Of a stretch of DNA of 64,000 nt, positions 5,573 through 37,658 are shown one piece after another (position 1 is the stretch's first letter; the number at the start of each line of letters is the position of its first letter). Below the pieces are notes generated by a model that saw nothing but the letters and a program-made list of their open reading frames with translations, was not told where the DNA came from and did no database searches. Source of the stretch: a phage; sequence record PZ476263.1; one strand, 5' to 3'. A program made the position numbers and the translations under genes.

Positions 5573-6149
5573 CTGCTAAATCTGTCGCACCACCATTCTT
5601 TCCACTTTTGGTATACCCTTTTAGGAAATCTGGTTGAAGACTTTCACAGACCTTCATCATTTCATCTTTGCCCATTTTGATCTTGACCATCTTCGTCCCT
5701 TTATCATTCATGACCTCCTGCTCTTCACCTGGCAACTTATCACGCGCCCAAGATTTAACCGAAGTTGGTGCAACAGTATGTATGTTTTGCATAGTATACC
5801 CAGAACGGAGCAGTGTCAACTGAATACAGAAAAATAATCCTGCGAGATCTCTCGTTGCATTGCCTGCGGATCCGAAACTAAGAGATTCAAGTACAATATG
5901 CTCAACTTCAAATGATACACAAAGTTCAAGGATACGTCCAGAGATATATTCCATCTGCTCAGCTGGATTTTCAAAATACATTTGCCAATCTTTCGCATTG
6001 GACGACCCTGTAGTCTTCATAACTTCCTTAAAGATCGGTTCACCATTATCAAAAATTACACAAGCGCAGGATGCCATACTCTGATCAATCGATAATAGTT
6101 TCATCTTCTTCTCCTTTTGTCTCTTCGTCAAGGTAATGGTATTGATCAA
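5526..6149 (-). CDS. RuvC-like (RNase H fold) nuclease, putative
   Basis: LLSIDQSMAS (N-terminal catalytic Asp), HIVLESLSFG, GGATDLADAFLIG resembling RuvC carboxylate motifs. Confidence 0.4.
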   Translation of the reverse strand: MINTITLTKRQKEKKMKLLSIDQSMASCACVIFDNGEPIFKEVMKTTGSSNAKDWQMYFENPAEQMEYISGRILELCVSFEVEHIVLESLSFGSAGNATRDLAGLFFCIQLTLLRSGYTMQNIHTVAPTSVKSWARDKLPGEEQEVMNDKGTKMVKIKMGKDEMMKVCESLQPDFLKGYTKSGKNGGATDLADAFLIGRCYLERNGY

Positions 6150-6411
6150 TCAGAAAAACATAGTTTTTAATTTCACCATCCATATAGACCATGAAGGTAA
6201 CGTATTTCTCGTCGTAGAATGGATCTCCTACAACATAGACCTGACATACCTTATCGATACGATTATCGTACCATTGCACTCGCCAAGGCTCTTCGATCAT
6301 AGTCCAAGGACCTTCTACCTTGTAAATCTGGCGACCAGCGCCAGTTACGATAGAGGAGCGGATCTTATCCGCTTCCATTACATCATCAAAGCTTTTAGAA
6401 AAATCTGACAT
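6085..6411 (-). CDS. hypothetical protein
   Basis: 108 aa ORF. Confidence 0.35.
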   Translation of the reverse strand: MSDFSKSFDDVMEADKIRSSIVTGAGRQIYKVEGPWTMIEEPWRVQWYDNRIDKVCQVYVVGDPFYDEKYVTFMVYMDGEIKNYVFLIDQYHYLDEETKGEEDETIID

Positions 6412-19064: not shown

Positions 19065-19140
19065 GGCCCTTTAGCTCAGTGGTTAGAGCAGGCGACTCAT
19101 AATCGCTTGGTCGCTGGTTCAAGTCCGGCAAGGGCCACCA
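19065..19140 (+). tRNA. tRNA with CAT anticodon; anticodon stem and acceptor resemble enterobacterial tRNA-Ile2 (lysidine) rather than elongator Met
   Basis: GGCCCTT acceptor, GCTC/GAGC D-stem, GGCGA-CTCATAA-TCGCT anticodon arm, TTCAAGT T-loop, encoded CCA. Confidence 0.8.
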
Positions 19141-19157
19141 CTCAATAGTTTATTTAC

Positions 19158-19249
19158 AAGATCATTCAGTAATTAAGCGAATGCCGGAAGCAGAACCGGA
19201 TCAACAAATGCGTACGGGTGTCATCGCCACCTAGCAACTGAATGATCTT
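19158..19249 (+). other. long stem-loop RNA element (13-bp perfect inverted repeat flanking 66 nt), followed by U-run; possible terminator or small RNA
   Basis: AAGATCATTCAGT (19158-19170) and ACTGAATGATCTT (19237-19249); internal CCGG-aagcagaa-CCGG hairpin. Confidence 0.45.
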
Positions 19250-19332
19250 TTAAATTCTCTTAACCTCATAAAATCCTTGACATAATAAGAAATTCCTGAT
19301 AACATCTCTATATCGACTTAATTGAGGTGCTT

Positions 19333-19707
19333 ATGCCTAAAGCTGAAATCGTTACTAGAAAACGGGGTCGGCCTACTACAGAGGAAAGTATCGCTATCAA
19401 CACCGAGAAGGCGATTCTTCATGCTCGTTCAGAGTTTGCAAGACTTACTCCTCAGGCGATTAAGACTCTGGAAGGTCTACTCACTTCCGGTACAGAGAAA
19501 GTTAAAGAAACTACTGCGAAGTATATTCTTGAACAGGCTGAAAAAGCTAACAATCTGTACACGATGGAAGATAATGAGGAAGATTTAGCGGGAGGTTCAA
19601 CTTCTGCGGATTCTGATACTCATAAAGGCCCTTCTGATGTATTTAAGGATGCAATTCCTCTTACTACTCAAATCAGAGAGTATAAAATTGCAGAAGGTGA
19701 AAACTAA
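19333..19707 (+). CDS. hypothetical protein with N-terminal basic KRGRPT segment
   Basis: 124 aa from ATG at 19333. Confidence 0.4.
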   Translation: MPKAEIVTRKRGRPTTEESIAINTEKAILHARSEFARLTPQAIKTLEGLLTSGTEKVKETTAKYILEQAEKANNLYTMEDNEEDLAGGSTSADSDTHKGPSDVFKDAIPLTTQIREYKIAEGEN

Positions 19708-19728
19708 AGGCTCTTAGGGGCCTTTTAT
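19707..19728 (+). terminator. putative intrinsic terminator
   Basis: AGGCTC-ttag-GGGCCT hairpin followed by TTTTATT. Confidence 0.4.
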
Positions 19729-19946
19729 TAATAGTTCTTTTTAATGTAGTTGCTTGGTGTAATTTTTCGGCAGATGGCTGCAACCATCCTATCGATAACT
19801 CATAGTTAGTGCTGCAAACACTGGCTACCTTAAAGAGAATTTAACTCGTCGAATAAGGAAGATGCTGATCTCAAAGTGAGGTCACTTACCGCAAGGGGTG
19901 TGCATAGACTCCCGCTTCCGAATAGACTATGTGGCGAGATGTATTT

Positions 19947-20028
19947 GGGGACGTGGCAGAGCGGTCGAATGCGCCTGACTGTAAATCAGGTATCCCACAC
20001 GGTGGTTCGAATCCATCCGGCCCCACCA
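19947..20028 (+). tRNA. tRNA-Tyr (GTA)
   Basis: CCTGA-CTGTAAA-TCAGG anticodon arm, GGTGG-TTCGAAT-CCATC T-arm, acceptor CGGCCCC-A-CCA; overall like enterobacterial tRNA-Tyr. Confidence 0.75.
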
Positions 20029-20282
20029 AATTAAGAAGCAGGGTCGCTACCTGCAAGTCGTCGGACTGAGATTCCCTGAATAAGACCCGACTTTAAGGCG
20101 TACAAATGTTCGGTTTAAAGTCCCTTATCTCACAGTCGAAACGGCGCATCCTATTCAGCCGTGATGTGATGTAATCACTGACCTCTTTGAAGGATCATGG
20201 CATCCTATACAAAAAAAAAACCTGAATAATTTAGGTTTTAATGCCTGGGGGTTCGTAGCCCTATTACTAAGAGGACTTAACT

Positions 20283-20492
20283 ATGTTTACTATTAAAATT
20301 ATTGATATCGATGGAAATGAGACGGGTGTTTCAACAAGGCACTACAGATGGTACTCAAAAATGAATATTTTTGATGTGGAGGGTGGAGAATCTGTTTCTG
20401 TACCACCAAAAAGTCGTGCTTATGTAATGAATGACAAAGGAATAACCATCGGTAGATACACAAATACAGCGGATCAACGCGTTCTTAATTAA
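20283..20492 (+). CDS. hypothetical protein
   Basis: 69 aa ORF between tRNAs. Confidence 0.35.
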   Translation: MFTIKIIDIDGNETGVSTRHYRWYSKMNIFDVEGGESVSVPPKSRAYVMNDKGITIGRYTNTADQRVLN

Positions 20493-20493
20493 A

Positions 20494-20568
<75 letters not shown>

Positions 20569-20667
20569 AACACATATCCATCTGACGCGTTTATGGGGTT
20601 GACCTGATCAATCTTCTCCTAATTTCGTGTGAAGACATCATGATTGTTGGGATGGATAAACTTATTT

Positions 20668-20742
20668 TGGGGATTAGCCAAGCGGTAAGGCATCGGATTT
20701 TGATTCCGACATTCACTGGTTCGAGTCCAGTATCCCCAGCCA
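20668..20742 (+). tRNA. tRNA-Gln (TTG)
   Basis: TGGGGAT...AAGCGGTAAGG...CGGATTTTGATTCCG...GGTTCGAGTCC...CCCCAGCCA; very close to E. coli tRNA-Gln. Confidence 0.85.
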
Positions 20743-20747
20743 ATTAA

Positions 20748-20824
20748 CGGTGTGTAGCGCAGCTTGGTAGCGCATCTGGTTTGGGGCCAGAGGGCCGTTG
20801 GTTCGAATCCAACTACACCGACCA
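20748..20824 (+). tRNA. tRNA-Pro (TGG)
   Basis: CGGTGTG TAGCGCAGCTTGGTAGCGCA TCTGG-TTTGGGG-CCAGA ... GGTTCGAATCC ... CACCGACCA; very close to E. coli tRNA-Pro. Confidence 0.85.
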
Positions 20825-21695: not shown

Positions 21696-22050
21696 ATGTC
21701 TGCTACATTCGCACCTGCGAGTCGCAAGCAACAAATGGTTCTCGAATCTACAGCACAGATTATGGTAATAGGTGGTGCAGCAGGATCAGGTAAATCATAC
21801 CTTTTACAGTTGATGCCTTTGCTTATTGTAAACGACCCTAAAACAGCCTGCATCATGTTTCGTCGTACTGTACCGCAGATTCGTGGACAAGGTGGCTTGT
21901 TTGACAAAGCTAAAGATATTTATAACCAGCTGCCTCCGGTAGTTAAGCCGAAGTTTAAAGAGAACGAGATGACTGCTACATTCCCTAACGGAGCAACCGT
22001 TAAGTGGCAGTCTATGCAACACGTAAGTGATAAATACGACATCCAGGGGT
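21696..22050 (+). CDS. terL: terminase large subunit, exon 1 (Walker A ATPase segment)
   Basis: IGGAAGSGKSY Walker A; frame terminates at TAA 22050-22052 inside predicted intron 1; predicted 5' splice site after U22050. Confidence 0.6.
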
Positions 22051-22960
22051 AAAAATTTCCTGCCCATCGTATCTTAATCGGTGAAACTCTGTTATAATAA
22101 GTACAGACAATACCGAGATCCATTACCTGAAATGACAGTAGGGAGATATGATGAAAAAATTTGAAATTGTTCCAAGCAAACCTGAATTTTCCGTAAGTGA
22201 AGACGGGCTGATTATGTTTACCTCTACAGGTACTATTCTTAAGCCGTATGTTGATAAGGATGGTTACCACAGGGTTAGAAATTTCTCTGCTGGAGGTAAA
22301 TCTCATTACATCGCCGTTCATCGCGCCGTTGCTGAGGTTTTTGTTAAAAACCCTAACCCAAAAGTGTTTAAGATTGTTAATCACTTGGATAATGTTAAGA
22401 GCAACAATCATAAAACCAATTTGGAATGGACAACCGAATCATTAAACCGAGTTCATGCAGTTCATGCCAACGGTACAGCATCTGTTAGAAACAATGTTAA
22501 ATTTACAGAAGGTCAAGTCAGAAAGGTGTGTGAACTTTTGAGCTTGGGCTATCGGATAGTTGATATTGTGAAACTTACAGGCGTTGATAGATTCAATGTG
22601 ATGGCAATTAGAAGCGGAAAATCTTGGGTTCAGATCTCTTGTGAGTTTGAAACTTTAAAAGTAGAAAGAAAAGATACACTGTCTGAAAAGACGATTCTTT
22701 GGATTAAAGACCAAATTAATCGCCAAAGGTCAGATGATGAAATACTTTTAATGTCGGTAAGACTTACAAAAGAAGAGCTTGAAAGAGCAAAGAAGATTAT
22801 TTCATTGATGGATTGTAACGACTAATGCTGATGAGTGTAAGCATGTAGGGCCAAGCGGTCCGAAACGATACGCCAAGGATGGAAGATATAGTCTGAACTA
22901 TATGGTGACATATAGCTGCTTAAGCAGGGTTAAGATTAGCGATCTTAATCGAACACAATG
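22051..22960 (+). mobile_element. group I intron 1 (about 910 nt) with internal HNH homing endonuclease ORF
   Basis: S element AAGATATAGTC at 22883-22893, R-like AACGACTAA at 22818-22825, P9 hairpin CTATATG-GTGA-CATATAG (GNRA loop), candidate IGS GCCC near 5' end, 3' end ...GAACACAATG. Confidence 0.6.
22148..22825 (+). CDS. intron-encoded HNH homing endonuclease
   Basis: DGYHRV...HRAVAEVF...NHLDNVKSNNHKTNLEW HNH core; lies wholly between terminase exons. Confidence 0.65.
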   Translation: MMKKFEIVPSKPEFSVSEDGLIMFTSTGTILKPYVDKDGYHRVRNFSAGGKSHYIAVHRAVAEVFVKNPNPKVFKIVNHLDNVKSNNHKTNLEWTTESLNRVHAVHANGTASVRNNVKFTEGQVRKVCELLSLGYRIVDIVKLTGVDRFNVMAIRSGKSWVQISCEFETLKVERKDTLSEKTILWIKDQINRQRSDDEILLMSVRLTKEELERAKKIISLMDCND

Positions 22961-23014
22961 TGGAATTTACATTTATAGGTGTGGACGAAGGCACTCAGTT
23001 TGAGTGGGAGCAGT
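22961..23014 (+). CDS. terL: terminase large subunit, exon 2 (54-nt micro-exon encoding Walker B-like FTFIGVDEGTQFEWEQ)
   Basis: in-frame segment between two intron cores; hydrophobic stretch + DE typical of terminase Walker B. Confidence 0.5.
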
Positions 23015-23341
23015 TAATCTAGCTGCCTCGTACAGTAATGTACGATGAGAAATTCTTGTGAATTGCTGGAAAATCCTTAGAGCTTGTAAAACTACAACAT
23101 GACCTGCAAAGGTGAGTGTGAATGTTAAAAATTTACAAGATTGGACGATCAGCCTCCAAGCCTCTTTACGAGAGGAAGGTTCAACGACTAGCCGAAAGGC
23201 GTAGATCATAAGCAAATGATGATCGAAGTGCAAGACCCCTACCTTATTGGTAGGGTGAAGATATAGTCTGATCTGCATGGTAACATGCAGCAGTGCTTGA
23301 GTGCACGGCAACGAACTTGCGATCCGTTGCGAACATAACAG
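23015..23341 (+). mobile_element. group I intron 2 (about 327 nt, ORF-less)
   Basis: IGS-like GCTGC pairing with exon GCAGU; R-like GTTCAACGACTAG 23179-23191; S AAGATATAGTC 23258-23268; P9 CTGCATG-GTAA-CATGCAG; 3' end ...GAACATAACAG. Confidence 0.55.
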
Positions 23342-24420
23342 TAGAATACATGATGTCTCGTCTTCGTTCCAGTTCTTCTTACCCTTCACGAATGGTAATT
23401 AGTTGTAACCCTGATCCTGATCATTATCTTCGTAAGATGGTTGATTGGTATCTCGATAAGGATGGTTATCCTGATCCTACAAAGGATGGAGTCATTCGAT
23501 ATTTCGTTCGAGTTGATGACCAATACATGTGGGGCGAATCAGTAGAAGAGCTTAAGAAGCGGTACGGTAAGAAATGTAAGCCTGTTTCTTTTACATTTAT
23601 ATCTTCTACTATTTACGATAACCCACCAATGCTTATTAACAACCCAGACTATCTAGCACAGCTGGAAGGTCTTAATGAGGTTGACAGAGCAAGACTGTTA
23701 CACGGCAACTGGGATGCACGTCCTCAGGGTGCTAACTATTTTAAACGTTCTTTTCTTAAAGAGGTTGATGTTCTTCCTTTAGGTGTAGATAAGGTTAGAT
23801 CATACGATAAAGCAGGAACTGAACGTTCTACAGGTAATAAAACACCTGACTTTACAGCCGGAATCGGTGTGGCGAGAGATCAGGACGGAATTTATTATCT
23901 TTTTGGCGATTATTGTGAAGAGTTTGTTGATGAAGGTGATTGGTCTACTGGCAACCTTGGTAGGTTCTGTAAGAAAGCTGGTGAACGAGATACGATCATT
24001 ATGAAACAAGCAATTCATGACGGTGATGATGTTAGAATAATATTCCCTGTTGACCCTGGTCAAGCGGGTATTGCTGAATTCACTACATCTTCCCGAGAAT
24101 TATTAAATCAAGGATTCATTGTTGAGAAAGACCCAACTCCTGGTAACAAGAAGAAGCTTGTACGCTTCTCTCCGTTTGCTAACCTTGCTCAGAACGGATT
24201 TGTTAGGATTGTTAAAAAGTCTTTCCCTTTGGATACCTATGAAGCATTAATGAAAGAGCTTGAATCTTTCAATGGTGAAAGGTCAACAGGGACACGTAAA
24301 GATGACTGGGTGGATGCTATCTCAACCGGAATAAATTTCCTTGAGAAAACAGAAATAGTCAGGGCTGTTACAATACCACGACCTTCTGCCCCAACACTTT
24401 ATTCGAAGTATCGACGATAA
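23342..24420 (+). CDS. terL: terminase large subunit, exon 3 (nuclease domain)
   Basis: continues ...EYMMSRLRSSSSYPSRMVISCNPDP...; acidic nuclease motifs DQDGIYYLFGDY, DPGQAGIA, DDWVDAISTG. Confidence 0.6.
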
Positions 24421-24429: not shown

Positions 24430-25962
24430 ATGATTTTGAAAAATAAGAAAAGTCGTAAAACTAATGTTCGCAAAGCAACTAGCGAAGAATTAAATGTTTC
24501 TCGTCTTCGTATGAGTGAACAAGGTACTTTTGCACTGGCTAAGGTTCAGATCGAAACTGAACGAATGAAAGCCGAAGAAATTAAATGGCCTCAGCTTATC
24601 GGTACTGTTGAAGCTATGAAGCAAGATGCTACGGTAGCGACTGGCCTTGATATGCTGTATACTTTCGTAGAAAAAGCATTTAAGGATTTTAAAGTTATTC
24701 CTGGTAAATCAAAAGAATCACAGGATGCTGCCGACTTTATCACTTATTGTTTGAAGAATATGGAAGGACAAACTCTTCGCCAGTTTGCTCGTGATGCTGC
24801 AACATTTAATGAATACGGAATCTCCGTAGTAGAAAAAGTTTATACGCAGATCCTTACTGGTGAATATGCTGGCAAGTTTAAAATTAAAAATCTTGCTTTC
24901 CGACCACAAGCGTCTTTAAGTCGTAAAAATCCTCTCGTATATAGCGATGACGGTTCTAGAGTAATTGGCGTTAAACAGACCCTTACTTCTTTCAAGAATT
25001 ACACAAATAGCGTATTGGGCAATAGTTCTGGATTTATTGGTTCTCGCAACGGTGATGATGTTATCATTCCTGCAAACAAGGTTATGATCATGACCACTGG
25101 CGGATCTTCGTCTCAGGCACTAGGCGTTTCACCTCTGGTTGCTTGCTATCGACCTTGGCGTGAAAAGGTTCTGATTGAAAACTTAGAAGTTGTTGGTGCT
25201 ACAAAAGATATGGGCGGTGTTATCGAATTAAAGATACCTTCTTCCATACTTAACAAAGCTGCAATTGACCCATCAAGCTACGAAGCTGAAATGGTTCAGG
25301 GTCTAATGGCTGACGCAGCCAACGCCCACTCTGGTGAGCAATCTTTCTTTATGCTGCCTTCTGACACTAAAGATAACGCTCCTTTATACTCAATGTCTCT
25401 GAAAGGCATTGACGGTATGGGTAAACAGTACAGCACTCGTGACCTTATCAGTGATCGTAAGAAATCAATCCTTGATCGTTTGGGAGCAGGATTCCTTAAC
25501 GTGGGTAATGATGATGCTGGTTCTTATAATCTGTCTGAGTCTAAGCAAACAATCCACACTCAATTTGTACAACGTGTAAATGAAATTATTGCTGAAGCAT
25601 TAAATGAGAATTTACTCCCTCAGCTTCTGGCATTAAATGGTATTCGCCTTGAACAAAAAGAAATGCCTTTCATTAAATTCGGTCAGATTGTTGACACAGA
25701 TATGGAAGGATTCTCCAAAGCTGTACAGCGTATGGGTGCTGTAGGTTATCTGCCTAAGACTCCAGAAGTAATCAATAAGATCCTTGACGTACTTGGAATT
25801 GATTATCAGTTGGCAGAAGATATTTCTCAAGAAGACCTTATGTTGCTTCTTGGAGATAATACCAGTCGTTCAGGTGATGGCTTTGCGCCAGGTTCGACAG
25901 GAAACGGGACTGGAAAGATTAGTGCTTCAAGAGACAATTCAATTTCTAACTTAGAAAATTGA
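24430..25962 (+). CDS. portal protein (putative)
   Basis: 510 aa ORF immediately downstream of terminase; size and position typical of portal. Confidence 0.5.
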   Translation: MILKNKKSRKTNVRKATSEELNVSRLRMSEQGTFALAKVQIETERMKAEEIKWPQLIGTVEAMKQDATVATGLDMLYTFVEKAFKDFKVIPGKSKESQDAADFITYCLKNMEGQTLRQFARDAATFNEYGISVVEKVYTQILTGEYAGKFKIKNLAFRPQASLSRKNPLVYSDDGSRVIGVKQTLTSFKNYTNSVLGNSSGFIGSRNGDDVIIPANKVMIMTTGGSSSQALGVSPLVACYRPWREKVLIENLEVVGATKDMGGVIELKIPSSILNKAAIDPSSYEAEMVQGLMADAANAHSGEQSFFMLPSDTKDNAPLYSMSLKGIDGMGKQYSTRDLISDRKKSILDRLGAGFLNVGNDDAGSYNLSESKQTIHTQFVQRVNEIIAEALNENLLPQLLALNGIRLEQKEMPFIKFGQIVDTDMEGFSKAVQRMGAVGYLPKTPEVINKILDVLGIDYQLAEDISQEDLMLLLGDNTSRSGDGFAPGSTGNGTGKISASRDNSISNLEN

Positions 25963-25983: not shown

Positions 25984-26601
25984 TTGCAAAACGTATCGTT
26001 CAGTGTTAAAATAAATATCACGGGAGCAATGATGGAAAACATTACTATCTCCGACCTTCCTTCACATACCTATCTGTCTCGAATTCAAAAGAGTCGGGCT
26101 GTGAAAAAGGCCAATGAGCTACTTGAAAAGGGCTTCAATAAGGAAGCCTCTATATCAGGAGCCATTGGCTCCGTTCTTATTCAAAAATCCAATCAGCAAG
26201 AAGAAATGATTTCTTATGAAATTATTTACGAACCTGATACTCCTGACCTGCATGGTCAGTGGATGAGTAAAGAAACATTAGTTAAGGCGCAACAGGATTT
26301 CAAAAAGGCTCAAGAAATAGGGGCCGTAACTGAAAACCTTTATCACTTGGTTGATACCGAAGCATTCAAGATCGTAGATCATTGGATTCAGCCAGAATTT
26401 GATGTAACTGTCGCTGCGACAGGTGAAGTCATTAAAGCAGGATCTTGGGTAGCAAAAGTTCAATATACACCTGAAGCATGGGAATTGAAAAAGGCTGGCA
26501 TCGTCGGCGGATTATCTCTTCAATGTGGCGGGATGTTGAATGAAGAAACAAATGAGCTATCCGATCTTGATTTCAGTATCGCATTGGAAGAGGAAGAATA
26601 A
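25984..26601 (+). CDS. head maturation protein (possible prohead protease); start probably at 26029
   Basis: position between portal and scaffold; GGGAG RBS before ATGATG at 26029. Confidence 0.3.
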   Translation: MQNVSFSVKINITGAMMENITISDLPSHTYLSRIQKSRAVKKANELLEKGFNKEASISGAIGSVLIQKSNQQEEMISYEIIYEPDTPDLHGQWMSKETLVKAQQDFKKAQEIGAVTENLYHLVDTEAFKIVDHWIQPEFDVTVAATGEVIKAGSWVAKVQYTPEAWELKKAGIVGGLSLQCGGMLNEETNELSDLDFSIALEEEE

Positions 26602-27686
26602 TGATTAAGACGTTGATAGAGAAAGGACGCAAGATTAAATCTCGCGGAATTGCTCTAACTCACAAAGACCAAGGTTACAGTGCTAATAATCGTCCTGTAA
26701 GCCTTCTCACCAAATCTGATATTGACCCGAATAAATTGACGGTTGATATTATCAAAACTTTAGAGCAAGTTCAGGTAACCCTGAGCATGGAAGAATTTCT
26801 TCGTAGATTCTTCGGTCTGTGGTCAGACGATGCTGAATTACTCGCAAAGATTCTGGGTTTTAAAACTGAATTTGAAGAGTATGTAGAAAATACAGACGAT
26901 CCTGATACATACGAAGAAGCTTATATTAAGCGTCATCAAGAATATATTGAAGAAAAGCTTACCACACTTTCAATTATCAACAAAGCAAAAGAAGGTGCTG
27001 ACCTTTCACTGTTGGAACGCTACGAACTAATTAAGACTCGTAAGCAATTCGAAGAAGGTTGTGCTGAACTGAATCTTGATTTTGGTGATACATCAACCTT
27101 ACGCAAGCCAGAAATTGATAAGGTAGAGAAATCTGCTGAATCTAAACCTGCAAGCTCCGCTGGAGCTACCACAACCATTAAGGAGACTCCTGTGGAAAAA
27201 GAAGTAGACGTGACTAAGTCTAAGCAATTCATTGACCTTATGAAAGCCAATGAAGCGCTGATGGCACAAGTACAGGGTATGCAAGAGACTTTCCTTGCTG
27301 CTCAAGATATCGTTAAAGCTCAAGCTGTTGCTAAACGTGAAATTGCAATCAACAAAGCTGCAAGCTTTGCATTTGTTGCTGAAGAACAGCGTGAAGCAGT
27401 TGCTGATCTGATTGAAGACCCAGCTAAAGCTACTGTTGTTGCTGTACTGGAAAAAGCCGCCGCCTCCCTGAAAGAAAAAGATGAAGCACTGGCAGCTAAA
27501 GACGCAGAAATCGAAGAGATCAAAAAATCCTTCGCTAATGGTGAAGAAACTGGTGCTGATGGTCAACTGACTGAAGTTGCTAAAGGTGCTGAAGATGCTC
27601 AAGCTCGCTTGAATCGTATTATCGCAGACCGCGCTGCTGAAATTGCTAAAGCTGCAAGTGGCACTTCTGAATTTATTAACGTCTAA
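26601..27686 (+). CDS. scaffolding protein
   Basis: 361 aa, acidic, Ala/Glu/Lys-rich predicted helical protein (AKAQAVAKREIAINKAASFAFVAEEQREAVADLIEDPAKA). Confidence 0.55.
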   Translation: MIKTLIEKGRKIKSRGIALTHKDQGYSANNRPVSLLTKSDIDPNKLTVDIIKTLEQVQVTLSMEEFLRRFFGLWSDDAELLAKILGFKTEFEEYVENTDDPDTYEEAYIKRHQEYIEEKLTTLSIINKAKEGADLSLLERYELIKTRKQFEEGCAELNLDFGDTSTLRKPEIDKVEKSAESKPASSAGATTTIKETPVEKEVDVTKSKQFIDLMKANEALMAQVQGMQETFLAAQDIVKAQAVAKREIAINKAASFAFVAEEQREAVADLIEDPAKATVVAVLEKAAASLKEKDEALAAKDAEIEEIKKSFANGEETGADGQLTEVAKGAEDAQARLNRIIADRAAEIAKAASGTSEFINV

Positions 27687-27706
27687 TTATCGAGGAAACA
27701 AATAGA

Positions 27707-28132
27707 ATGGCTAAAGCACACGTTGTAACTCTTGAAGGGAACTATTCCGATATCGTACTGGGCCGTGTTGTTGCATTTGGTGACACGGGTTGGAACTTTG
27801 AAGAAGTAGATATGGCATACACCGCTGACCTAGTGGCTGGCCTGCTGGTAGCTGCCGATGGTACTCCGGCTGCGGCTGCTGCTGATGTATACGGTGTTCT
27901 GGTTGACCGTAAAGTCCTGCCTGGTGTTACTAAGCATGATGGTGCAACCCCTATGGCTGGTGAAACCCTGCCTATGACTATCGCTGTTCGTGGTCTGACC
28001 CTGAACGCAACTAAACTGGTTTACGCTGATGGTAGCCCAATTGACGACGCTGGTAAGCTGGCTCTGTCTAAAGCTGGTAACCAAGTAACTGATCGTGTAG
28101 TAGCTACCGAATTCCTCGGCGCTATCCTGTAA
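27707..28132 (+). CDS. head decoration protein (lambda gpD-like position)
   Basis: 141 aa gene directly upstream of major capsid gene; shares its strong codon bias. Confidence 0.45.
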   Translation: MAKAHVVTLEGNYSDIVLGRVVAFGDTGWNFEEVDMAYTADLVAGLLVAADGTPAAAAADVYGVLVDRKVLPGVTKHDGATPMAGETLPMTIAVRGLTLNATKLVYADGSPIDDAGKLALSKAGNQVTDRVVATEFLGAIL

Positions 28133-28155
28133 TTATTTCGAAGGAGACATTTTAA

Positions 28156-29151
28156 ATGCAAAACGGTGATTTTCAAATTCTGGATTATACTGGCCTGATT
28201 CAAACCCTGCCGCGTGTTGATACCCTGCTGCAAAGCATGAATCTGTTCACTGAGAACTTTGGTCGTACTACTATCGCTAAAATCGAACGTCGTGATGACG
28301 GTGCTGGTCAGATCAATGCTGTTCAGCGTGGTAGCGTTCGTCAGCACCTGGGTAATGATCGTAAAAAGATCGCAAACCTGAACATCCCGTTCTTCCCTCT
28401 GGACCGTTCTATTGACCGTGCTGATATCCAGAACTTCCGTGAATTCGGTACGGATAATGCTCCGGCAACCGTAGAAGCTGAAGTTGCTCGTCACCTGGCT
28501 CGTATTCGTCGTAGCCATGCGGCACTGAAATCCAAAGCAATGTATGCTGCACTGAAGGGTACTTCTTGGTCCCCGAACGATCCGGTTTGTGATTACGACT
28601 ACTACGATGTTTGGGGTGTTACCCAGCAGACCGCCGATATCGACTTCACCGCTCTGGCGGTTGACCCGATTGAAGTTATCGAAGCTGAAGCTCGTGCTCA
28701 CATCATCGATTACGCTGGCGACAGTGGTGACAACTACGAAATCGTAGTTATGGCATCCCGTCAGTGGTTCTCTGCACTGATCGCTCACCCGCAGGTAACT
28801 GGTGCTTACTCTCAGTATCCGTCTACTCAGGAAGTTCTGCGTCGTCGTCTGGGTGGCAATGCTAACAACCGTATCTTCGAACACAAGAACGTGCTGTTCA
28901 TCGAAGATATTTCCGGTAACATCCCAGCTGGTGAAGCTTATATCTTCCCTCGTGGCATCGACCGTATGTTTGAAATCTACTACGCGCCGAGCGACACTCT
29001 GGAAGGTGCTAACCAAGTTGCACAGGAACTGTATGTATTCTTCAAAGAATCTCAGTACCTGCGTGAAGCTAAGATCGAATCTGAAACTTCCTTCCTGACA
29101 GTTAACAACCGCCCTGAGCTGGTAGTTAAGTCAACTGGTAAGTTTGAATAA
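28156..29151 (+). CDS. major capsid protein (lambda gpE-like)
   Basis: 331 aa; highly biased codon usage (CTG, CGT, GGT) typical of abundant virion protein; strong RBS; followed by terminator. Confidence 0.6.
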   Translation: MQNGDFQILDYTGLIQTLPRVDTLLQSMNLFTENFGRTTIAKIERRDDGAGQINAVQRGSVRQHLGNDRKKIANLNIPFFPLDRSIDRADIQNFREFGTDNAPATVEAEVARHLARIRRSHAALKSKAMYAALKGTSWSPNDPVCDYDYYDVWGVTQQTADIDFTALAVDPIEVIEAEARAHIIDYAGDSGDNYEIVVMASRQWFSALIAHPQVTGAYSQYPSTQEVLRRRLGGNANNRIFEHKNVLFIEDISGNIPAGEAYIFPRGIDRMFEIYYAPSDTLEGANQVAQELYVFFKESQYLREAKIESETSFLTVNNRPELVVKSTGKFE

Positions 29152-29168
29152 TTTTAATAACTATCTTA

Positions 29169-29196
29169 AAGGTCACCTTCGGGTGGCCTTTTTTAT
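29169..29196 (+). terminator. intrinsic terminator (UUCG tetraloop)
   Basis: AGGTCACC-ttcg-GGTGGCCT followed by TTTTTTATT. Confidence 0.65.
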
Positions 29197-29213
29197 TATG
29201 CCTGTACATTTTG

Positions 29214-29222
29214 GATAAAATA
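29214..29222 (+). promoter_or_regulatory. late-type promoter element GATAAAATA
   Basis: ttTGGATAAAATAgtg directly after capsid terminator. Confidence 0.4.
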
Positions 29223-29275
29223 GTGTACTATTATAAGATAGGCCCTTAATATAATCAATGACGAAGGAGTTATTA

Positions 29276-29887
29276 ATGTCTAAATCAACTCACTTAGAAA
29301 TCTTTCGAAGTGAATATCACATGCTCAAATTCTTTGGGGAATATCTTGAAAAGTTAGATGTTAATACATCTGCTCGATTGGGAGCTTTCCTTTATAGTTA
29401 TGACGGAAACTTAGTTCTGGCCCGTGGCCTTTATGATTTTCTTTCTCAAATGGAAAAAATGACTGCCTTGGGTATTGATGTTAAATCATCTACTCAGAAA
29501 GGTACTAGCTTCTTGGTATTTTTTAAAGAAAAACCAAAAGCCCCTGAAAAATTCCGTCAAGATGTTAAAAAGATTGAAGCTTTGAAAGAAGCAATTGTAG
29601 TAGCTACTCCAGCTAAAACTATGGAGGAGACTATCCTTGTTTCTACGAAAGTAGAAGAAGAGGGTAAATCTGAAGAGACTGTGGAAGTAGAAGAAAAAGT
29701 TGTTAAGTCTTCTCGTAGTCAAGAAGAAAAAGCAGAGATCTTAGCAAAAGCGGAAGAACTTCGTGATGACAGTAAGAAAGCTGCTGCAAAAGCTGCACTC
29801 GAAGCTTTCGGTATGGAACACGGTGTTTCTCTGAGCAAAGGTAAAACCTTTGATGCGATGTTGGAAGATTTAGCTGCTGCACTTTAA
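29276..29887 (+). CDS. hypothetical structural-region protein
   Basis: AAGGAG RBS before ATG at 29276; charged Lys/Glu/Ala-rich C-terminal half. Confidence 0.4.
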   Translation: MSKSTHLEIFRSEYHMLKFFGEYLEKLDVNTSARLGAFLYSYDGNLVLARGLYDFLSQMEKMTALGIDVKSSTQKGTSFLVFFKEKPKAPEKFRQDVKKIEALKEAIVVATPAKTMEETILVSTKVEEEGKSEETVEVEEKVVKSSRSQEEKAEILAKAEELRDDSKKAAAKAALEAFGMEHGVSLSKGKTFDAMLEDLAAAL

Positions 29888-29940
29888 TCCCGCCTCAAGC
29901 CCCTACTCTGGGGCTTAAATTCCTAGGAGAAATTTAATAA

Positions 29941-32900
29941 ATGTCTGAATACAATGATAAGGTCGTAGAGGCTTTTGTTACTGCCCCAGATCCTGTCGTT
30001 ACTACCAGTGGTGGTGGAGTTATTTTTAACGGTATTGAAACTCGTGATACCGTTTCTACCACTTTGGTTGGTGATGGTACTGTAACTGCGCCTCTTCAAG
30101 CACAAATTCGTGTTTCTCGTCGAGCAGGTAACGCCCTTCAGGTAGTTCAAACTGAAAGTGAACAAGGTCTGTTTGCATCGGCAGGCGAAGCTAAAGTTTC
30201 CGTATCTGCTGTCAACGTTGCAAAATATGTTACAGCTGAAGAAGCTGCAAGTCAAGGTGATGCTGCACTGGAAGGTGTTTTAGTAGAACCTGTTCACTTA
30301 ACCACCACAGCAGCAACATCTGGATTACAGATCAGTGCAGATCCTCTGACTGGTAAAAAATCTCGAATCGGTCTTGTTGTTTCACCTGCTGCCACTAACG
30401 CACTGTCTTTAGAAGAAGATGGTTTGTCTGTTAAAGTGTCTCCAGCTATTGATAACAACATTCAAGTTCGTGAAGGTGCTCTGTATGTTCCTCCGAGCAA
30501 TGCAGAAGTATCTCCTGATTCCGACAACAAGCTTGAATTACGTTCCAATGGTCTTTATGTTGCCACTGTAAAAGGTGACAAAGGCGACCAGGGTGAACAA
30601 GGCCCAGCGGGTCCTCAAGGTGAAGTAGGTCCAGAAGGTCCGCAAGGTCCGGCTGGAGAGAAGGGTGACCAAGGTGAACAAGGACCTCAAGGTGACAAAG
30701 GGGATCAGGGCGTAGCTGGTCCAGCAGGTCCACAAGGTGCTCGTGGTCCAGAAGGTCCTCGTGGTGAAACTGGCTTGGGCATTAATGTTCTGAGTTCTTT
30801 AGACTCGGAAGATCAGTTGCCTTCTGTTGTTGATTTACAGAATGGTGATACCTATGTAATCGGACAAAACTTCTTTACTGTCATCACTGAAGGTGGTGTA
30901 AAACAGTGGAGAAATATTGGTAACTTCGCAGGCCCAGAAGGTCAATCTGCATTTGAAGTTGCTGAGACTGCTGGATTTGTTGGTACTGTAGATGATTGGT
31001 TAGCAAGTCTTCGCGGTGCTGATGGTATCGGTCTTCAGCTTCTTGGCGCTCTGCGTCGTGTGGAAGACTTACCGGAAGAAGGCAACCGACAAGGCGATGC
31101 TTATATCATTCAGGAACAAATGTATGTTTGGACTGGTGATGTAGATCGTTGGCAGATTGTAGGTCAGATTGGCCCAGAAGGTCGTTCTGCTTATCAGGTT
31201 TGGTTGGCGAATGGCAATACTGGATCACAAGTTGACTTCCTTAACTCACTCAAGGGTGAAAAGGGAGATACGGGTGAGCAAGGTCCTCAGGGGGAAAGGG
31301 GCGAAGACGGTAAAAACGCAAACGCAATCAACATCCTTGGTAGTGTAGCTGATGAAGCTTCTCTTCCAGAAGGCGCTGATGCAGGTGATGCCTACCTTAT
31401 TGGGACTAACGTCTTTGTATCAGACGGCGCTGGTAACTGGGAAAATTTGGGATCTTTCCAAGGCCCACAAGGTGATCAGGGTGTTAAAGGTGACAAAGGC
31501 GATAAGGGAGACAAGGGCGATAAAGGTGATAAAGGTGATGACAACTACACCATTGCTGTTGCTAACGGTTTCGTCGGATCTGTAACTGAATACCTTGCGT
31601 CCATTAAGGGTGAGAAAGGTGATGTAGGTGCAACTGGTCCCCGTGGTCTTACTGGTCCACAGGGTGAACAGGGTCCCGTCGGTGCTGGTCTGAATATTCT
31701 CGGATCTTTCGAGGATGAGTCTGAACTGCCAACTTCTGGAATTACCGAAGGTGATGCCTACCTGATCCAAGGATTCCTTTATATCTTTACTGGAGGTTCT
31801 TTTAAGAACGTTGGTGAAGTTAAGGGTCCTAAAGGAGATCAGGGCGATGTAGGACCTGCGGGTCCACAGGGTGAGCAGGGTATTGCGGGACCACAAGGCC
31901 AGCAAGGTTTAGTTGGACCTGCGGGTCCTCAAGGCGAGACTGGTCCACAAGGCCCAGAAGGTCCAGAAGGTCCTCAAGGTCCTCAAGGAGCGCAGGGTGA
32001 AAAAGGCGATATTGGTAGTGGCCTTATTGCTCGTGGAACTGTTGAAACATCTGTGCAATTGCCTAGTGACGCTGCAATCGGTGATTTTTACGTTGTAACT
32101 TCCGAAGGTATTGGCTATGCTTGGGACGGTTCTGATTGGGTAGCCACAGGATTAGCACAAGGACCTATAGGTCCTGCTGGAGCTGATGGTGCCAAGGGTG
32201 AAAAAGGCGACAAAGGAGATCAAGGAGAAAAAGGCGACGCTGGTACAGGTCTGACTCCGAAAGGTCTTGTTGACACATCTTCTGACTTACCTTCTTCTGC
32301 TGAAGTTGGTGATTTCTACGTAGCTGCTGACACTGGTATTGGTTATGCTTGGGACGGCACTTCTTTTGTAGAGTCCGGCACTGTACGTGGACCACAAGGT
32401 GAAGCGGGTCCTCAGGGCGAAGCAGGTCCAGAAGGTCCGCAAGGCCCTCAGGGTGGAATAGGTCCCGTTGGACCAGAAGGTCCGCAAGGTATCGCTGGCC
32501 CTAAAGGGGATAAAGGTGACGTTGGTAGTGGTTTAATCCCTCGTGGAACAATCCCGACTATGGCAGACCTTCCTTTGACTGGTGAAGTTGGTGACTTTTA
32601 CGTAGCCAATGATACGGGAATCGGCTATGCCTTTAACGGGACTGCTTTTATAGAGTCTGGGGTTGCTCGCGGCCCTCAGGGCGAGAAGGGTGAAACTGGT
32701 GCAGTTGGACCGCAGGGTCCGGTTGGTGCTACTGGTGCAATTGGACCGCAGGGTCCTCAGGGTGCTCAAGGTGAACAGGGCATTCAAGGTGAACGAGGAG
32801 AAATCGGTCCTCAGGGTGAGAAAGGTGACACTGGAGAGCAGGGTCCTCAAGGGGATATCGGTCCAGGGGTTGAGATCATCGGTAAATTCGATAACTCTTC

Positions 32901-33729
32901 CGAACTTCCTTCTACTGGTCAATTAGGTCAAGGTTATCTGATCCAAGGTGATTTCTGGGGATGGACAGGTACTGCTTATGAAAACTTAGGTCGTATTCAA
33001 GGTCCTGTAGGCCCTGTAGGTCCGACTGGTAACCAAGGTCCACAAGGTCCTGTCGGTGTTAAAGGGGATAAAGGTGACCAAGGTACTTTGTGGATTGTAT
33101 TCGCAAGGGATCCTTTGGTAAGTGATGGTCGTGTCAACGACTTCTTCCTGAACTCTTCTACTTTGGAATACTTCCGTAAAACGTCTGCAACTAACTGGGC
33201 TTCCCTCGGATACTTGGGTGGTGGTAACGTTTATGATGCACCTGGGGATGGTAAAGCTTACGTCCGTCAAGATCAGGGCTGGTCTGAATTAACTTACCCT
33301 GTCAATGAAGCACCTACCGATGGCGGTGATTATGTTCGTAAGAATGGTACTTGGAGCACTCTGGTTATTCCGGTAACGGAAGCTCCGCTGGAAGGTGGAT
33401 TCTACGTCCGTGAAAACGGTGAGTGGGTGAAACTCGACAAATACGACTTGCGTGTAATTGCTTCTACTGGTGTGGTTGATGCATCTCAGGCCAACAGCTG
33501 GACTTTGGACGGAACAACCAGTAAGTCCTTGGTGATTAATAACCTTCCCGAAGGCCGAGCAATGACTCTTGTACTGAGATTCACTGGTAACGGTGGAAAC
33601 ATTACTTGGGACTCTAAGATCGCATGGTCTAATGGTACAGCACCTGTGCTGGGAGTTACCCGTACTATCCTGACTCTGTTCTGGGATGGTGAGTTCCTTA
33701 CTGGTACTCAAGCAATGACTGTTGGTTAA
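29941..33729 (+). CDS. collagen-like repeat fiber protein (1262 aa)
   Basis: multiple G-X-Y runs ([25 protein letters not shown]...) alternating with eight ~35-aa modules (LP..G..GD.Y.....G..W); C-terminal triple YVR.NG.W repeats. Confidence 0.7.
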   Translation: MSEYNDKVVEAFVTAPDPVVTTSGGGVIFNGIETRDTVSTTLVGDGTVTAPLQAQIRVSRRAGNALQVVQTESEQGLFASAGEAKVSVSAVNVAKYVTAEEAASQGDAALEGVLVEPVHLTTTAATSGLQISADPLTGKKSRIGLVVSPAATNALSLEEDGLSVKVSPAIDNNIQVREGALYVPPSNAEVSPDSDNKLELRSNGLYVATVKGDKGDQGEQGPAGPQGEVGPEGPQGPAGEKGDQGEQGPQGDKGDQGVAGPAGPQGARGPEGPRGETGLGINVLSSLDSEDQLPSVVDLQNGDTYVIGQNFFTVITEGGVKQWRNIGNFAGPEGQSAFEVAETAGFVGTVDDWLASLRGADGIGLQLLGALRRVEDLPEEGNRQGDAYIIQEQMYVWTGDVDRWQIVGQIGPEGRSAYQVWLANGNTGSQVDFLNSLKGEKGDTGEQGPQGERGEDGKNANAINILGSVADEASLPEGADAGDAYLIGTNVFVSDGAGNWENLGSFQGPQGDQGVKGDKGDKGDKGDKGDKGDDNYTIAVANGFVGSVTEYLASIKGEKGDVGATGPRGLTGPQGEQGPVGAGLNILGSFEDESELPTSGITEGDAYLIQGFLYIFTGGSFKNVGEVKGPKGDQGDVGPAGPQGEQGIAGPQGQQGLVGPAGPQGETGPQGPEGPEGPQGPQGAQGEKGDIGSGLIARGTVETSVQLPSDAAIGDFYVVTSEGIGYAWDGSDWVATGLAQGPIGPAGADGAKGEKGDKGDQGEKGDAGTGLTPKGLVDTSSDLPSSAEVGDFYVAADTGIGYAWDGTSFVESGTVRGPQGEAGPQGEAGPEGPQGPQGGIGPVGPEGPQGIAGPKGDKGDVGSGLIPRGTIPTMADLPLTGEVGDFYVANDTGIGYAFNGTAFIESGVARGPQGEKGETGAVGPQGPVGATGAIGPQGPQGAQGEQGIQGERGEIGPQGEKGDTGEQGPQGDIGPGVEIIGKFDNSSELPSTGQLGQGYLIQGDFWGWTGTAYENLGRIQGPVGPVGPTGNQGPQGPVGVKGDKGDQGTLWIVFARDPLVSDGRVNDFFLNSSTLEYFRKTSATNWASLGYLGGGNVYDAPGDGKAYVRQDQGWSELTYPVNEAPTDGGDYVRKNGTWSTLVIPVTEAPLEGGFYVRENGEWVKLDKYDLRVIASTGVVDASQANSWTLDGTTSKSLVINNLPEGRAMTLVLRFTGNGGNITWDSKIAWSNGTAPVLGVTRTILTLFWDGEFLTGTQAMTVG

Positions 33730-33739
33730 TTTTCAATAA

Positions 33740-33760
33740 GGGGGCTTCGGCCCCCATTTT
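33740..33760 (+). terminator. UUCG-tetraloop hairpin, possible terminator/attenuator
   Basis: GGGGGC-ttcg-GCCCCC followed by ATTTT then AAGGAG RBS. Confidence 0.4.
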
Positions 33761-33771
33761 AAGGAGAAGTA

Positions 33772-34407
33772 ATGAGTATTAAAATTTATGGCTGGGTTCC
33801 AATGATTCGTATGTCCGACATGCGTTATCCTGTTTACCTTTCCGACTTTAAAGCTGAATATACCAACGTATCTACCGGAAGCTTCGTCTATGAAGAGGGT
33901 ATGGCTGAATTTGGTTATTACCCTGTTCTTGATGTTGATATTCCGCAAGGTGATGTAGTTACCGAAGGAGCACCAGTTCAAGGTGAGGATGGCAAATGGT
34001 ATAAATCTTGGAACTCTCGTGACTACACCGAAGAAGAGATCGCTGATAACCTTCGTCGTCAAAAAGAACAATTAATCTACTCTGCCAAATCTAATTTCGA
34101 AAATGAAAACATGGGGGGTGTAGAAGTTGATGGTAGTTTCTATTCTGTAGATTCAAATTCACTCTCTCTTTATCATTCTATTCTCTCTGTTGCAGAAATG
34201 TCTGAAGACGACAAATTGTTCAGTCTGTTAACTTACGACAATAAGGTTATCGAACATCTCCGTTTAGATGCAATCGAACTTATTGAAGAAATAATTTCCG
34301 TGTATGTAGAAAGCTACAATAATATGACGGCTTTCATTAAAGAAGTGAATGTTGCAAAAAATATGGAAGAATTACCTTCCGTACCTGAGTCTTTCCGCAT
34401 TGCTTAA
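33772..34407 (+). CDS. hypothetical protein between fiber genes (possible fiber assembly factor)
   Basis: 211 aa ORF, acidic C-terminal half. Confidence 0.35.
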   Translation: MSIKIYGWVPMIRMSDMRYPVYLSDFKAEYTNVSTGSFVYEEGMAEFGYYPVLDVDIPQGDVVTEGAPVQGEDGKWYKSWNSRDYTEEEIADNLRRQKEQLIYSAKSNFENENMGGVEVDGSFYSVDSNSLSLYHSILSVAEMSEDDKLFSLLTYDNKVIEHLRLDAIELIEEIISVYVESYNNMTAFIKEVNVAKNMEELPSVPESFRIA

Positions 34408-34419
34408 TCGAGGTAATAT

Positions 34420-36036
<1,617 letters not shown>

Positions 36037-36074
36037 TTTAATTATAATTCACAGGGACGTGATTAGGAGATAAT

Positions 36075-37658
36075 ATGACGAATTCTGTAGTAGGTATGGC
36101 AGGTCACAATAATGGTGTATTTTATGGATACTCTCTTTATGACTTGGAGCAAAAAAGAAAGATAGCCTTTAAAGATTTAACTAAGGGTGACTCAGGGGCG
36201 AAGGGCGATAAGGGTGATCCTGGTCCAGAAGGTCCACAAGGTGATAAAGGAGATACCGGAGAGCAAGGCCCTGTAGGACCTCAAGGTCCTGCTGGTGCAC
36301 CAGGGCAACAAGGTGTGCCTGGTGAAAGAGGACCTCAAGGTCCCGAAGGCCCACAAGGCCCTCAAGGCCCAATTGGTCCCGAAGGACCAGTAGGACCAAT
36401 CGGCTCCCAAGGTCCCGAAGGTCCTAAAGGAGAGCAAGGTGAACAAGGCCCTTCTGGATCTCAAGGTCCTCAAGGATTAAAAGGGGATACAGGGGCACAA
36501 GGACCTCAAGGTCCCGTTGGACCCAGAGGAGAGACAGGTGCAACAGGACCTGTTGGACCTAAAGGGGACACAGGCCCAACAGGTCCAAAAGGAGAAACGG
36601 GTGAACAGGGACCCATTGGTCCGCAAGGACCTAAGGGTGATACAGGTCCCGTGGGTCCTGCAAGCTTAACCTTCAGAGGTTTCTATGAACCTCTTGAAGA
36701 ATACAACGAAAAGGATACAGTAGCTTATAATGGTTCTACTTATTTTGCGTTAAGAACCAGTACAGGAGCAACACCGGATATTTCTCCCGATGACTGGGCA
36801 TTACTTGCAGCTGAAGGTGCAGTTGGACCACAAGGACCTATGGGACCAGAGGGTCCGCAAGGTATCGCTGGTGCTCAAGGTCAGGAAGGCCCTATAGGAC
36901 CGCAAGGTGAACAGGGTCCGGTTGGACCTGTTGGCCCACAAGGCCCACAAGGTCCTGCGGGTCAGGAAGGAATAGAAGGCCCTCAGGGACCTCAAGGAGA
37001 AGAAGGCCCTATGGGACCTCAGGGACCACAAGGGATTGTAGGACCAACAGGTCCACAAGGCCCTCAAGGCCCCAAAGGGGACACTGGTGCAGTTGGACCA
37101 CAAGGTCCTCAAGGCCAACAAGGTCTTGATGGTCCACAAGGCCCTGCTGGTCCGCAAGGCGAAAGAGGTGTTACTGGACTAACCGGACCCCAAGGTCCCA
37201 AGGGTGATATCGGCCCTGTGGGTCCGGCTGGCCCTCAAGGTAAGGATGGTAATTCTTACACTATCTACAACTGGGGCAACATATCAACGGGCTATGGTGA
37301 GATGGTAATACCTGGTGTTACTAACACAGTATTCAGAGTGAGACGAGTAGGAACCACATTAGAATACAGTGTACTTAGTAAAGGTGGTGCGAATAGATAC
37401 CTTGACTTCCATACCATAATTCCAGCCCCCTCTACAGGGGGCGCTGTAATTATCCAATCAGGAAATACAACATTGACATCCTCCAGCTCTTTAAATGTTG
37501 TTACATCTGCACCTCCTGGTCTTGGTTTTCGACCAATATTCATCTCTTTAAAAGAGTGGGGAGATAGGGCAATAGTAACCATAGAGGTTTTCCACACAGG
37601 TAGAAGTGGAGATTCCAGTTACCCAATACATGTTCGTATGCTAACGACGAAGTATTGA
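36075..37658 (+). CDS. collagen-like fiber protein, paralog B (527 aa)
   Basis: N-terminal [25 protein letters not shown] runs, central [12 protein letters not shown] module, different C-terminal domain. Confidence 0.65.

Follow-up and report, generated by a model that had tools for sequence, protein, structure and literature searches.

Genes for the abundant head proteins of bacteriophages use the codons preferred by the host, a rule that has been described since the 1980s and was generalised in 2008, when an elevated codon adaptation index (CAI) of head genes, persisting after control for amino-acid sequence and for GC content at third codon positions (GC3), was reported as a general feature of phages (Lucks, Nelson, Kudla & Plotkin 2008, PMC2266997). 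On a reference of 31 E. coli K-12 genes (ribosomal proteins, tufA, fusA and rpoA; 5,222 codons), which serves for every CAI given here, lambda genes E and D score 0.55 and 0.51, the highest among the late genes of that phage, and T7 gene 10A, which is followed by the T-phi terminator, scores 0.64 and tops the class III genes examined. Here, we describe a stronger form of this bias over two adjoining genes, encoding a head decoration (cement) protein (Dec) and the major capsid protein (MCP), at positions 27707 to 29151 of a 64,000-nucleotide stretch of phage DNA (sequence record PZ476263.1; hereafter, the window). With CAI values of 0.704 for Dec and 0.783 for MCP, both genes exceed their lambda and T7 counterparts and reach the level of E. 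coli ribosomal-protein genes (rplB, rpsC and fusA score 0.77-0.80 on the same scale). Unlike lambda and T7, the carrier is an AT-rich (41% GC), tRNA-encoding virulent myophage in which the contrast with neighbouring genes is unusually sharp, and the adapted block starts inside an open reading frame (ORF). Translational selection on the proteins most abundant in the virion very probably produced this island, which represents a strong but ordinary case of the rule.

The direct homologues of Dec and MCP in described virions are those of Pectobacterium phage phiTE (PDB entries 9cul and 9mjn) and of phage phi92, in which the two genes stand in the same order. The phiTE head, of triangulation number T=13, holds 13 MCP and 13 DEC copies per asymmetric unit, with DEC forming a trimeric beta-tulip (PMC11972413), and the T=13 head of phi92 holds 775 MCP and 780 cement copies, the cement protein gp123 being likewise a trimeric beta-tulip, with 144 sheath copies counted alongside (PMC13450770). 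The 1:1 stoichiometry and the HK97 fold reported for the MCP are those of phiTE and phi92. MCP matches the Pfam family PF03864 Phage_cap_E (E = 8e-39, 134 bits against a cut-off of 22.9, over residues 12-327 of 331), the phiTE MCP in PDB entry 9cul_G (E = 1e-202) and the phi92 MCP gp124 (E = 1e-70). Dec matches the phiTE 'head stabilization/decoration protein' in PDB entry 9cul_e (E = 2e-52) and phi92 gp123 (E = 5e-11), and has no Pfam family at E < 0.01. Judged by these similarities, Dec is a homologue of the trimeric beta-tulip decoration proteins phiTE DEC and phi92 gp123; its sequence did not place it in the lambda gpD family, and any relationship with gpD would be confined to the level of the fold. 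The Pfam, PDB and PHROG matches agree with a preliminary description of this DNA, which had correctly identified the two genes as those of a decoration protein and a major capsid protein.

MCP and Dec rank first and second in CAI among the 87 ORFs of the window, far above the background (mean 0.391, standard deviation 0.094, for 65 genes of at least 100 aa), and the effective number of codons, which depends on no reference set, is lowest in the same two genes (32.9 in MCP and 33.9 in Dec; median 46.1). Best codons make up 0.73 of MCP and 0.66 of Dec, compared with 0.43 of the rest and 0.66 of the E. coli reference set. In MCP, Leu is encoded by CTG in 22 of 22 cases, Arg by CGT in 23 of 24, Gly by GGT or GGC in 20 of 20, Glu by GAA in 20 of 22 and Ile by ATC in 19 of 25, and the codons ATA, AGA, AGG, CGA, GGA, TTA and TTG do not occur at all. 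In the other genes, ATA accounts for 17% of Ile codons, AGA for 22% of Arg codons and TTA for 20% of Leu codons, with CTG at 16% of Leu codons, in agreement with the neighbours rich in ATA, AGA and TTA noted earlier. The list of favoured codons proposed in the preliminary description holds for CTG, CGT, GGT and GAA and fails for AAA and ACC, which are not preferred: MCP uses AAA in 5 of 11 cases and, for Thr, ACT in 10 and ACC in 6 of 18 cases, both being optimal in E. coli. An antisense ORF of 331 aa (28021-29016, minus strand), lying in register with the MCP codons, is a shadow ORF that is stop-free because MCP has no TTA or CTA and only one TCA.

Randomisation places this bias at the synonymous sites. 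When codons were resampled from genome-wide synonymous usage with the amino acids fixed, the observed CAI stood at z = 17.9 for MCP and 9.2 for Dec. A stricter null, following Lucks et al., which fixes the amino acids and also the third-base class (G/C or A/T) of each codon, gave z = 11.6 for MCP and 6.5 for Dec, with none of 20,000 replicates reaching the observed values (p < 5e-5). By CAI rank, effective number of codons and both randomisations, the codon island claimed over Dec and MCP is real, and the per-gene CAI against an E. coli reference, which had been proposed as a check, sets the two genes well apart from all others. The tail sheath gene follows in third place (CAI 0.60; z = 11.3 under the amino-acid null and 7.6 with GC3 class also fixed), and the gradient continues from MCP, Dec and sheath to the ORF immediately upstream of Dec (CAI 0.53, C-terminal part 0.68), a member of PHROG 2970 and referred to below as the PHROG 2970 ORF, and then to the tube gene (0.48). 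Within Dec and MCP, the first 25-30 codons are less adapted (CAI of about 0.6) than the remainder (about 0.8). The window also carries a cluster of five tRNA genes at 19065-20824 (Met-CAT, Tyr-GTA, Gly-TCC, Gln-TTG and Pro-TGG), the number reported for Septuagintavirus. The last three of these tRNAs read GGA, CAA and CCA, whose shares of their synonymous families are 23%, 62% and 28% elsewhere in the genome; in Dec and MCP together, these codons are used in 0 of 35, 6 of 18 and 2 of 18 cases. The top virion genes lean on the major tRNAs of the host, and the bulk of the genome uses codons that the phage tRNAs supplement.

The GC content of Dec (0.509) and MCP (0.487) lies above that of the immediate neighbours (0.41 and 0.375), as previously claimed, but codon choice accounts for only part of the excess. 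Codon positions 1 and 2 hold about 85% of it in Dec (GC1 0.70; GC3 0.38 against a background of 0.336), where it stems mostly from amino-acid composition; in MCP, about 60% comes from GC3 (0.467). At third positions, A falls from 0.27 to 0.14, C rises from 0.17 to 0.27 and T is unchanged or higher, and the bias is directed to optimal codons, including the T-ending GGT, CGT, GCT, GTT and ACT, not to G+C. Gly and Pro codons raise the collagen-repeat genes at 29941-37658 to the same GC level (0.49-0.51), with GC3 of 0.27-0.31, and these genes show mild adaptation or none (CAI 0.48 in the first of them and 0.27 in the last), and therefore GC alone does not define the island. Its edges, which had been described as sharp and coincident with gene boundaries, are so only on the 3' side, where the gene after the MCP stop opens at a codon-adaptation z of about -1.5 and a terminator-like hairpin marks the edge. 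On the 5' side the edge is not at 27707: adaptation begins about 500 nt upstream, inside the PHROG 2970 ORF, the last 130 or so codons of which have a CAI of 0.67-0.83 against an expected 0.38-0.55 (in-frame windows of 30 codons).

The window derives from a virulent myophage of about 140 kb in Vequintavirinae, nearest to the Septuagintavirus/UPEC06 group. A megablast search with positions 26000-31000 matched Vequintavirinae-type phages only, led by Escherichia phages LTH01 and UPEC06 and the Septuagintavirus isolates A7_1, A5-4, A73 and W70 (83-86% nucleotide identity), with Certrevirus phages of Pectobacterium, Cronobacter, Klebsiella and Enterobacter forming the next tier (76-80%). This region is the head-morphogenesis module, with the terminase large-subunit gene (terL), portal, protease, PHROG 2970 ORF, Dec and MCP following one another on the plus strand. 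In all seven relatives scored, namely UPEC06, W70, KaOmega, CB7, the Salmonella phage GEC_vB_MG (Seunavirus), the rV5-like JLBYU08 and the phi92-like BME3, the two highest CAI values (0.63-0.78) belong to Dec and MCP; sheath comes next (0.50-0.65), and the GC3 background of these genomes extends from about 0.25 up to about 0.60. The GC-rich Certrevirus genomes have no GC3 island, and Dec there lies below its neighbours in GC3; the CAI peak persists.

Synonymous sites in the two genes have also diverged slowly. The Nei-Gojobori estimate of synonymous divergence (dS) from UPEC06 is 0.37 for Dec, 0.40 for MCP and 0.77 for sheath, compared with 1.2-1.5 for terL, portal, the gene downstream of MCP and a collagen gene, and the same ordering is obtained against KaOmega and CB7. 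Synonymous divergence of Dec and MCP is 3-4 times below that of neighbouring genes. Such an inverse relation between codon bias and dS, reportedly described for enterobacterial genes by Sharp and Li in 1987, is a classical signature.

Codon adaptation further parallels the composition of the virion. By mass spectrometry of W70 virions, the three highest values of spectra per kDa belong to Dec (54.6), MCP (43.1) and the product of the PHROG 2970 ORF (22.8) (PMC11370258), and the island covers, wholly or in part, exactly the adjoining genes of these three most abundant proteins. CAI correlates with W70 spectra per kDa over 25 virion proteins (Spearman rho = 0.53-0.56, p = 0.003-0.006), and the abundance order obtained by mass spectrometry for phiTE is MCP, DEC, sheath and tube (PMC11972413). 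Every test made, including those after the criteria of Ikemura and of Sharp and Li, supports translational selection: the bias is host-directed, independent of amino acids and GC3, present across the lineage and accompanied by low dS, and CAI tracks virion abundance. By homology with phiTE and phi92, each T=13 head would need about 775 capsid and about 780 decoration subunits, far above the demand for other proteins. Synonymous sites of Dec, MCP and the C-terminal part of the preceding ORF have very probably been driven to codons of the major host tRNAs (CTG, CGT, GGT, ATC, CCG, GCT, GTT, ACT/ACC and GAA) and away from the A-ending or rare ATA, AGA, GGA, TTA, CAA and CCA, which are common in the rest of this AT-rich genome. 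The benefit would probably be faster, cheaper or more accurate translation late in infection, and the block, with its strong Shine-Dalgarno sites, a candidate nested start at 27192 and a terminator at 29168, would work as a high-expression unit.

Besides translational selection, the preliminary description had offered the horizontal acquisition of a lambda-like capsid cassette, in which Dec and MCP would have come from a more GC-rich phage or prophage and kept the codon usage of the donor. The higher GC of both genes relative to their immediate neighbours would fit such an origin, as would the membership of MCP in Phage_cap_E, the lambda gpE family, and an order of protease, scaffold-like, decoration and capsid genes that resembles lambda C-Nu3-D-E. 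However, the cassette sits in the same place in every relative examined: the synteny of the module is the same in 11 of 11, and the order terL-portal-protease-PHROG 2970-Dec-MCP is kept from the window phage to the phi92-like phages, with amino-acid identities of about 60-65% (Dec) and 88-89% (MCP) to Certrevirus and of 34% (Dec) and 41% (MCP) to the phi92-like phages. Pairwise p-distances of MCP are congruent with those of terL, portal, Dec, sheath, tube and two other genes (Pearson r = 0.91-0.98; seven phages, 21 pairs), and the proposed check of the capsid protein against neighbouring genes gave no sign of transfer. An MCP homologue was found by tblastn in 837 phage records; among the matches listed, large myoviruses form a graded series from 97% down to about 30% identity, with scattered weaker ones below, and lambda is absent. 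BLASTP against lambda gpE (E = 0.057) and gpD (E = 0.13) was not significant, and a blastn search with 27200-29260 against 5,426 complete E. coli genomes returned no match, hence no prophage donor. The codon usage itself is not that of a GC-rich donor, since the GC3 of Dec is low, T-ending optimal codons are favoured, the bias survives GC3-preserving randomisation and relatives lacking a GC contrast still show the CAI island. The transfer was therefore rejected as very improbable, and the term 'lambda-like' holds at three levels only: the Pfam family, the beta-tulip fold reported for homologues, and gene order.

A composition artefact, in which proteins rich in Ala, Gly, Val and Asp shift GC at codon positions 1 and 2 with no selection at synonymous sites, agrees with the location of most of the Dec excess and with the collagen-like genes, whose high GC is purely a matter of Gly and Pro codons. 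Its probability is practically negligible, as CAI and the effective number of codons are computed within synonymous families, the randomisation with amino acids fixed refutes it, and the collagen genes combine high GC with mild or no codon adaptation. Selection acting on the mRNA (through stability, structure, or avoidance of nucleases or defence targets), or recent recombination homogenising the capsid genes among related phages, is an unlikely explanation, with some features in its favour: a conserved terminator or stabiliser hairpin follows MCP directly, the low dS of Dec and MCP could also come from recombination, and poorer adaptation of the first codons is a pattern usually ascribed to mRNA-level constraints. 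Yet the codon preference matches specifically that of the E. coli ribosomal-protein and elongation-factor set, dS is reduced at every level of divergence, including Certrevirus with its different base composition, amino-acid distances are congruent with those of neighbouring genes, and a model based on mRNA only does not predict the correlation with protein abundance.

Several points weigh against translational selection. E. coli is a proxy reference, chosen since the nearest relatives infect it, and may not be the actual host. The abundance values come from the relative W70, not from the window phage, and their correlation with CAI is only moderate. The CAI of sheath exceeds the value expected from its W70 spectral count, and W70_131 and W70_129, homologues of the first and last collagen-like genes, are abundant in the virion with low CAI. 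The prohead protease gene has a dS of 0.57 from UPEC06 with a CAI of only 0.36, and therefore codon selection alone does not explain local variation in dS. In addition, sequence data do not allow speed, accuracy and mRNA stability to be told apart as targets of selection.

The early onset of the island leads into the PHROG 2970 ORF, the start of which overlaps the protease stop codon as ATGA. This ORF has no Pfam family and no PDB sequence match, and its N-terminal 197 aa belong to no family beyond PHROG 2970. Its CAI is 0.43 over codons 2-197 and 0.68 over codons 199-361 (0.68-0.71 over the last 130-165 codons), with z = 2.6 for the N-terminal and 5.4 for the C-terminal part under the amino-acid and GC3 null. 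Between the two parts, an internal ribosome-binding signal precedes an in-frame GTG at codon 198 (ATT AAG GAG ACT CCT GTG). Interior in-frame combinations of Shine-Dalgarno and start codon occur four times in the 14,102 interior codons of the window (0.28 per 1000), and this is the sole mid-ORF case; two of the others, at codons 32 and 37, are close to the 5' ends of their ORFs and could be the real start codons. Of 11 related phages, 10 have a Shine-Dalgarno sequence and start codon at the corresponding site: (A/G)AGGAG-N6-GTG is common to UPEC06, W70, KaOmega, CB7, GEC_vB_MG, Mydo and JLBYU08, and in BME3 and in one Aeromonas and one Vibrio phage a Shine-Dalgarno sequence is paired there with TTG or ATG; no such combination is present in ICP1. 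The rare codons GAG and GTG are kept at the candidate start, though synonymous sites between the lineages are saturated. When seven phages were aligned on the GTG codon, pooled adaptation was z = -2.1 in the 15 codons before it and between +3.0 and +5.4 in almost all 15-codon bins that follow, the last two being weaker, with an upstream average of about +1.4. The adaptation step coincides with the candidate internal start, and the 5' part of the codon-adapted block is 27192-27686. Internal ATG codons at 27241, 27261 and 27279, considered as alternative nested starts, lack a Shine-Dalgarno sequence and are not conserved, and the GTG at 27192 fits better.

We lean slightly towards the view that this signal marks an unannotated gene within a gene, conserved across Vequintavirinae, phi92-like phages and related Aeromonas and Vibrio myophages. 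Translation from the internal Shine-Dalgarno sequence and GTG would yield large amounts of a C-terminal product of about 164 aa, which would be a scaffold or a protein of the head interior, and the full-length form would be made at a lower level through coupling to the protease stop codon, bringing an extra N-terminal domain into the prohead. The short form is annotated in none of the database records inspected, and searching the literature for nested scaffold genes or internal scaffold starts in Vequintavirinae returned nothing relevant. A band compatible with the 40-kDa form of the PHROG 2970 homologue was reported for W70 (PMC11370258), the CB7 homologue was detected with only 14% coverage, and the phiTE paper mentions neither a PHROG 2970 homologue nor a scaffold (PMC11972413).

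The arrangement resembles lambda C/Nu3 in having an in-frame internal start between the protease function and the decoration and capsid genes and a C-terminal product of roughly 140-200 aa. Mu I/Z is another nested in-frame scaffold gene. Lambda also has an intragenic CAI step, from 0.37 in the N-terminal part of C to 0.49 in Nu3, compared with 0.43 to 0.68 here. Unlike in lambda, the protease has its own ORF upstream, so that the long form does not fuse protease and scaffold, and the candidate nested start is a GTG; and unlike a classical scaffold, which is discarded, the W70 homologue of the PHROG 2970 ORF is abundant in mature virions. The conserved candidate start revealed by the codon step is the only mildly novel element.

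The features of the block and of the surrounding region are listed in Table 1. The hairpin and T-run after MCP recur at the same place in 7 of 7 relatives, and stem sequences at this position are unrelated in the more distant ones, which argues for a conserved function. A scan of 26400-30100 for sigma-70 promoters gave 8 sites against 5.9 expected, none convincingly placed. The motif CTGTACAnTTT, considered as a late promoter, is conserved 3' of the terminator in close relatives but occurs 8 times in the window against 6.5 expected, and was rejected.

Table 1. Positions of the head-module genes, expression signals and other structural genes in the window
Feature	Positions	Strand	Remarks
terL, piece 1	21696-22058		aa 1-121
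terL, piece 2	22960-23016		aa 119-137; 19-codon mini-exon
terL, piece 3	23341-24417		aa 137-495
Portal gene	24430-25962	+	
Prohead protease gene	25984-26601	+	Peptidase_S78_2, E = 2e-15
PHROG 2970 ORF	26601-27686	+	361 aa; scaffold-like or capsid-associated; PHROG 2970, E = 2e-88
Internal ribosome-binding signal and start	27180-27194	+	AAGGAG at 27180-27185, 6-nt spacer, in-frame GTG at 27192-27194
Candidate nested in-frame gene	27192-27686	+	Putative; GTG at codon 198; 164-aa Ala/Glu/Lys-rich product
Shine-Dalgarno sequence of Dec	27692-27696	+	GAGGA, 10 nt before the ATG
Dec, head decoration (cement) protein gene	27707-28132	+	141 aa; PDB 9cul_e; phi92 gp123; PHROG 2680 'head decoration'
Shine-Dalgarno sequence of MCP	28141-28146	+	AAGGAG, 9 nt before the ATG
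MCP, major capsid protein gene	28156-29151	+	331 aa; HK97 fold; Pfam PF03864 Phage_cap_E
Intrinsic-terminator-like hairpin	29168-29197	+	10-bp GC-rich stem, UUCG loop, T-run; 17 nt past the MCP stop
Collagen-triple-helix-repeat protein gene	29941-33729		1262 aa; Fibritin_C-like end
Collagen-triple-helix-repeat protein gene	34420-36036		Weak CBM_5_12 match
Collagen-triple-helix-repeat protein gene	36075-37658		
Tail sheath gene	40008-41423	+	Second tier of the codon-adaptation gradient; PHROG 205; PDB 9cb9_A, E = 6e-227

Upstream of the portal gene, alignment of the intact W70 TerL places terL in three pieces within 21696-24420. The first intron carries an HNH endonuclease ORF (22148-22825); the second has no ORF and matches the Rfam group I intron family RF00028 at 22986-23290 (78.7 bits; cut-off 50). 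A single HNH intron, whose splicing was proven by reverse-transcription PCR, interrupts terL in CB7 and phiTE, and the gene has none in W70 and UPEC06. On the scale of the whole window, GC skew and gene orientation flip jointly at about 16.6-17 kb and about 58.8-59 kb, with negative skew and minus-strand genes at 1-16.6 kb and after 58.8 kb, and positive skew and plus-strand genes between; these flip points are the boundaries of divergently transcribed modules. Within the leftward, probably early or middle, block, a 108-aa ORF at 6085-6411 (minus strand) has a CAI of 0.54, the highest outside the structural module; it has no Pfam family and may encode a highly expressed small early protein.

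For the phage itself, the codon choice points to a host within Enterobacterales whose optimal codons resemble those of E. coli, and codon adaptation ranks its late genes by likely expression level. A local island of GC content or codon usage in a phage need not mean gene transfer. In addition, a codon-adaptation step within an ORF, when checked against relatives, can expose nested genes missed by annotation pipelines, and the candidate internal start found in this way is conserved in a whole group of therapeutic-candidate myophages.

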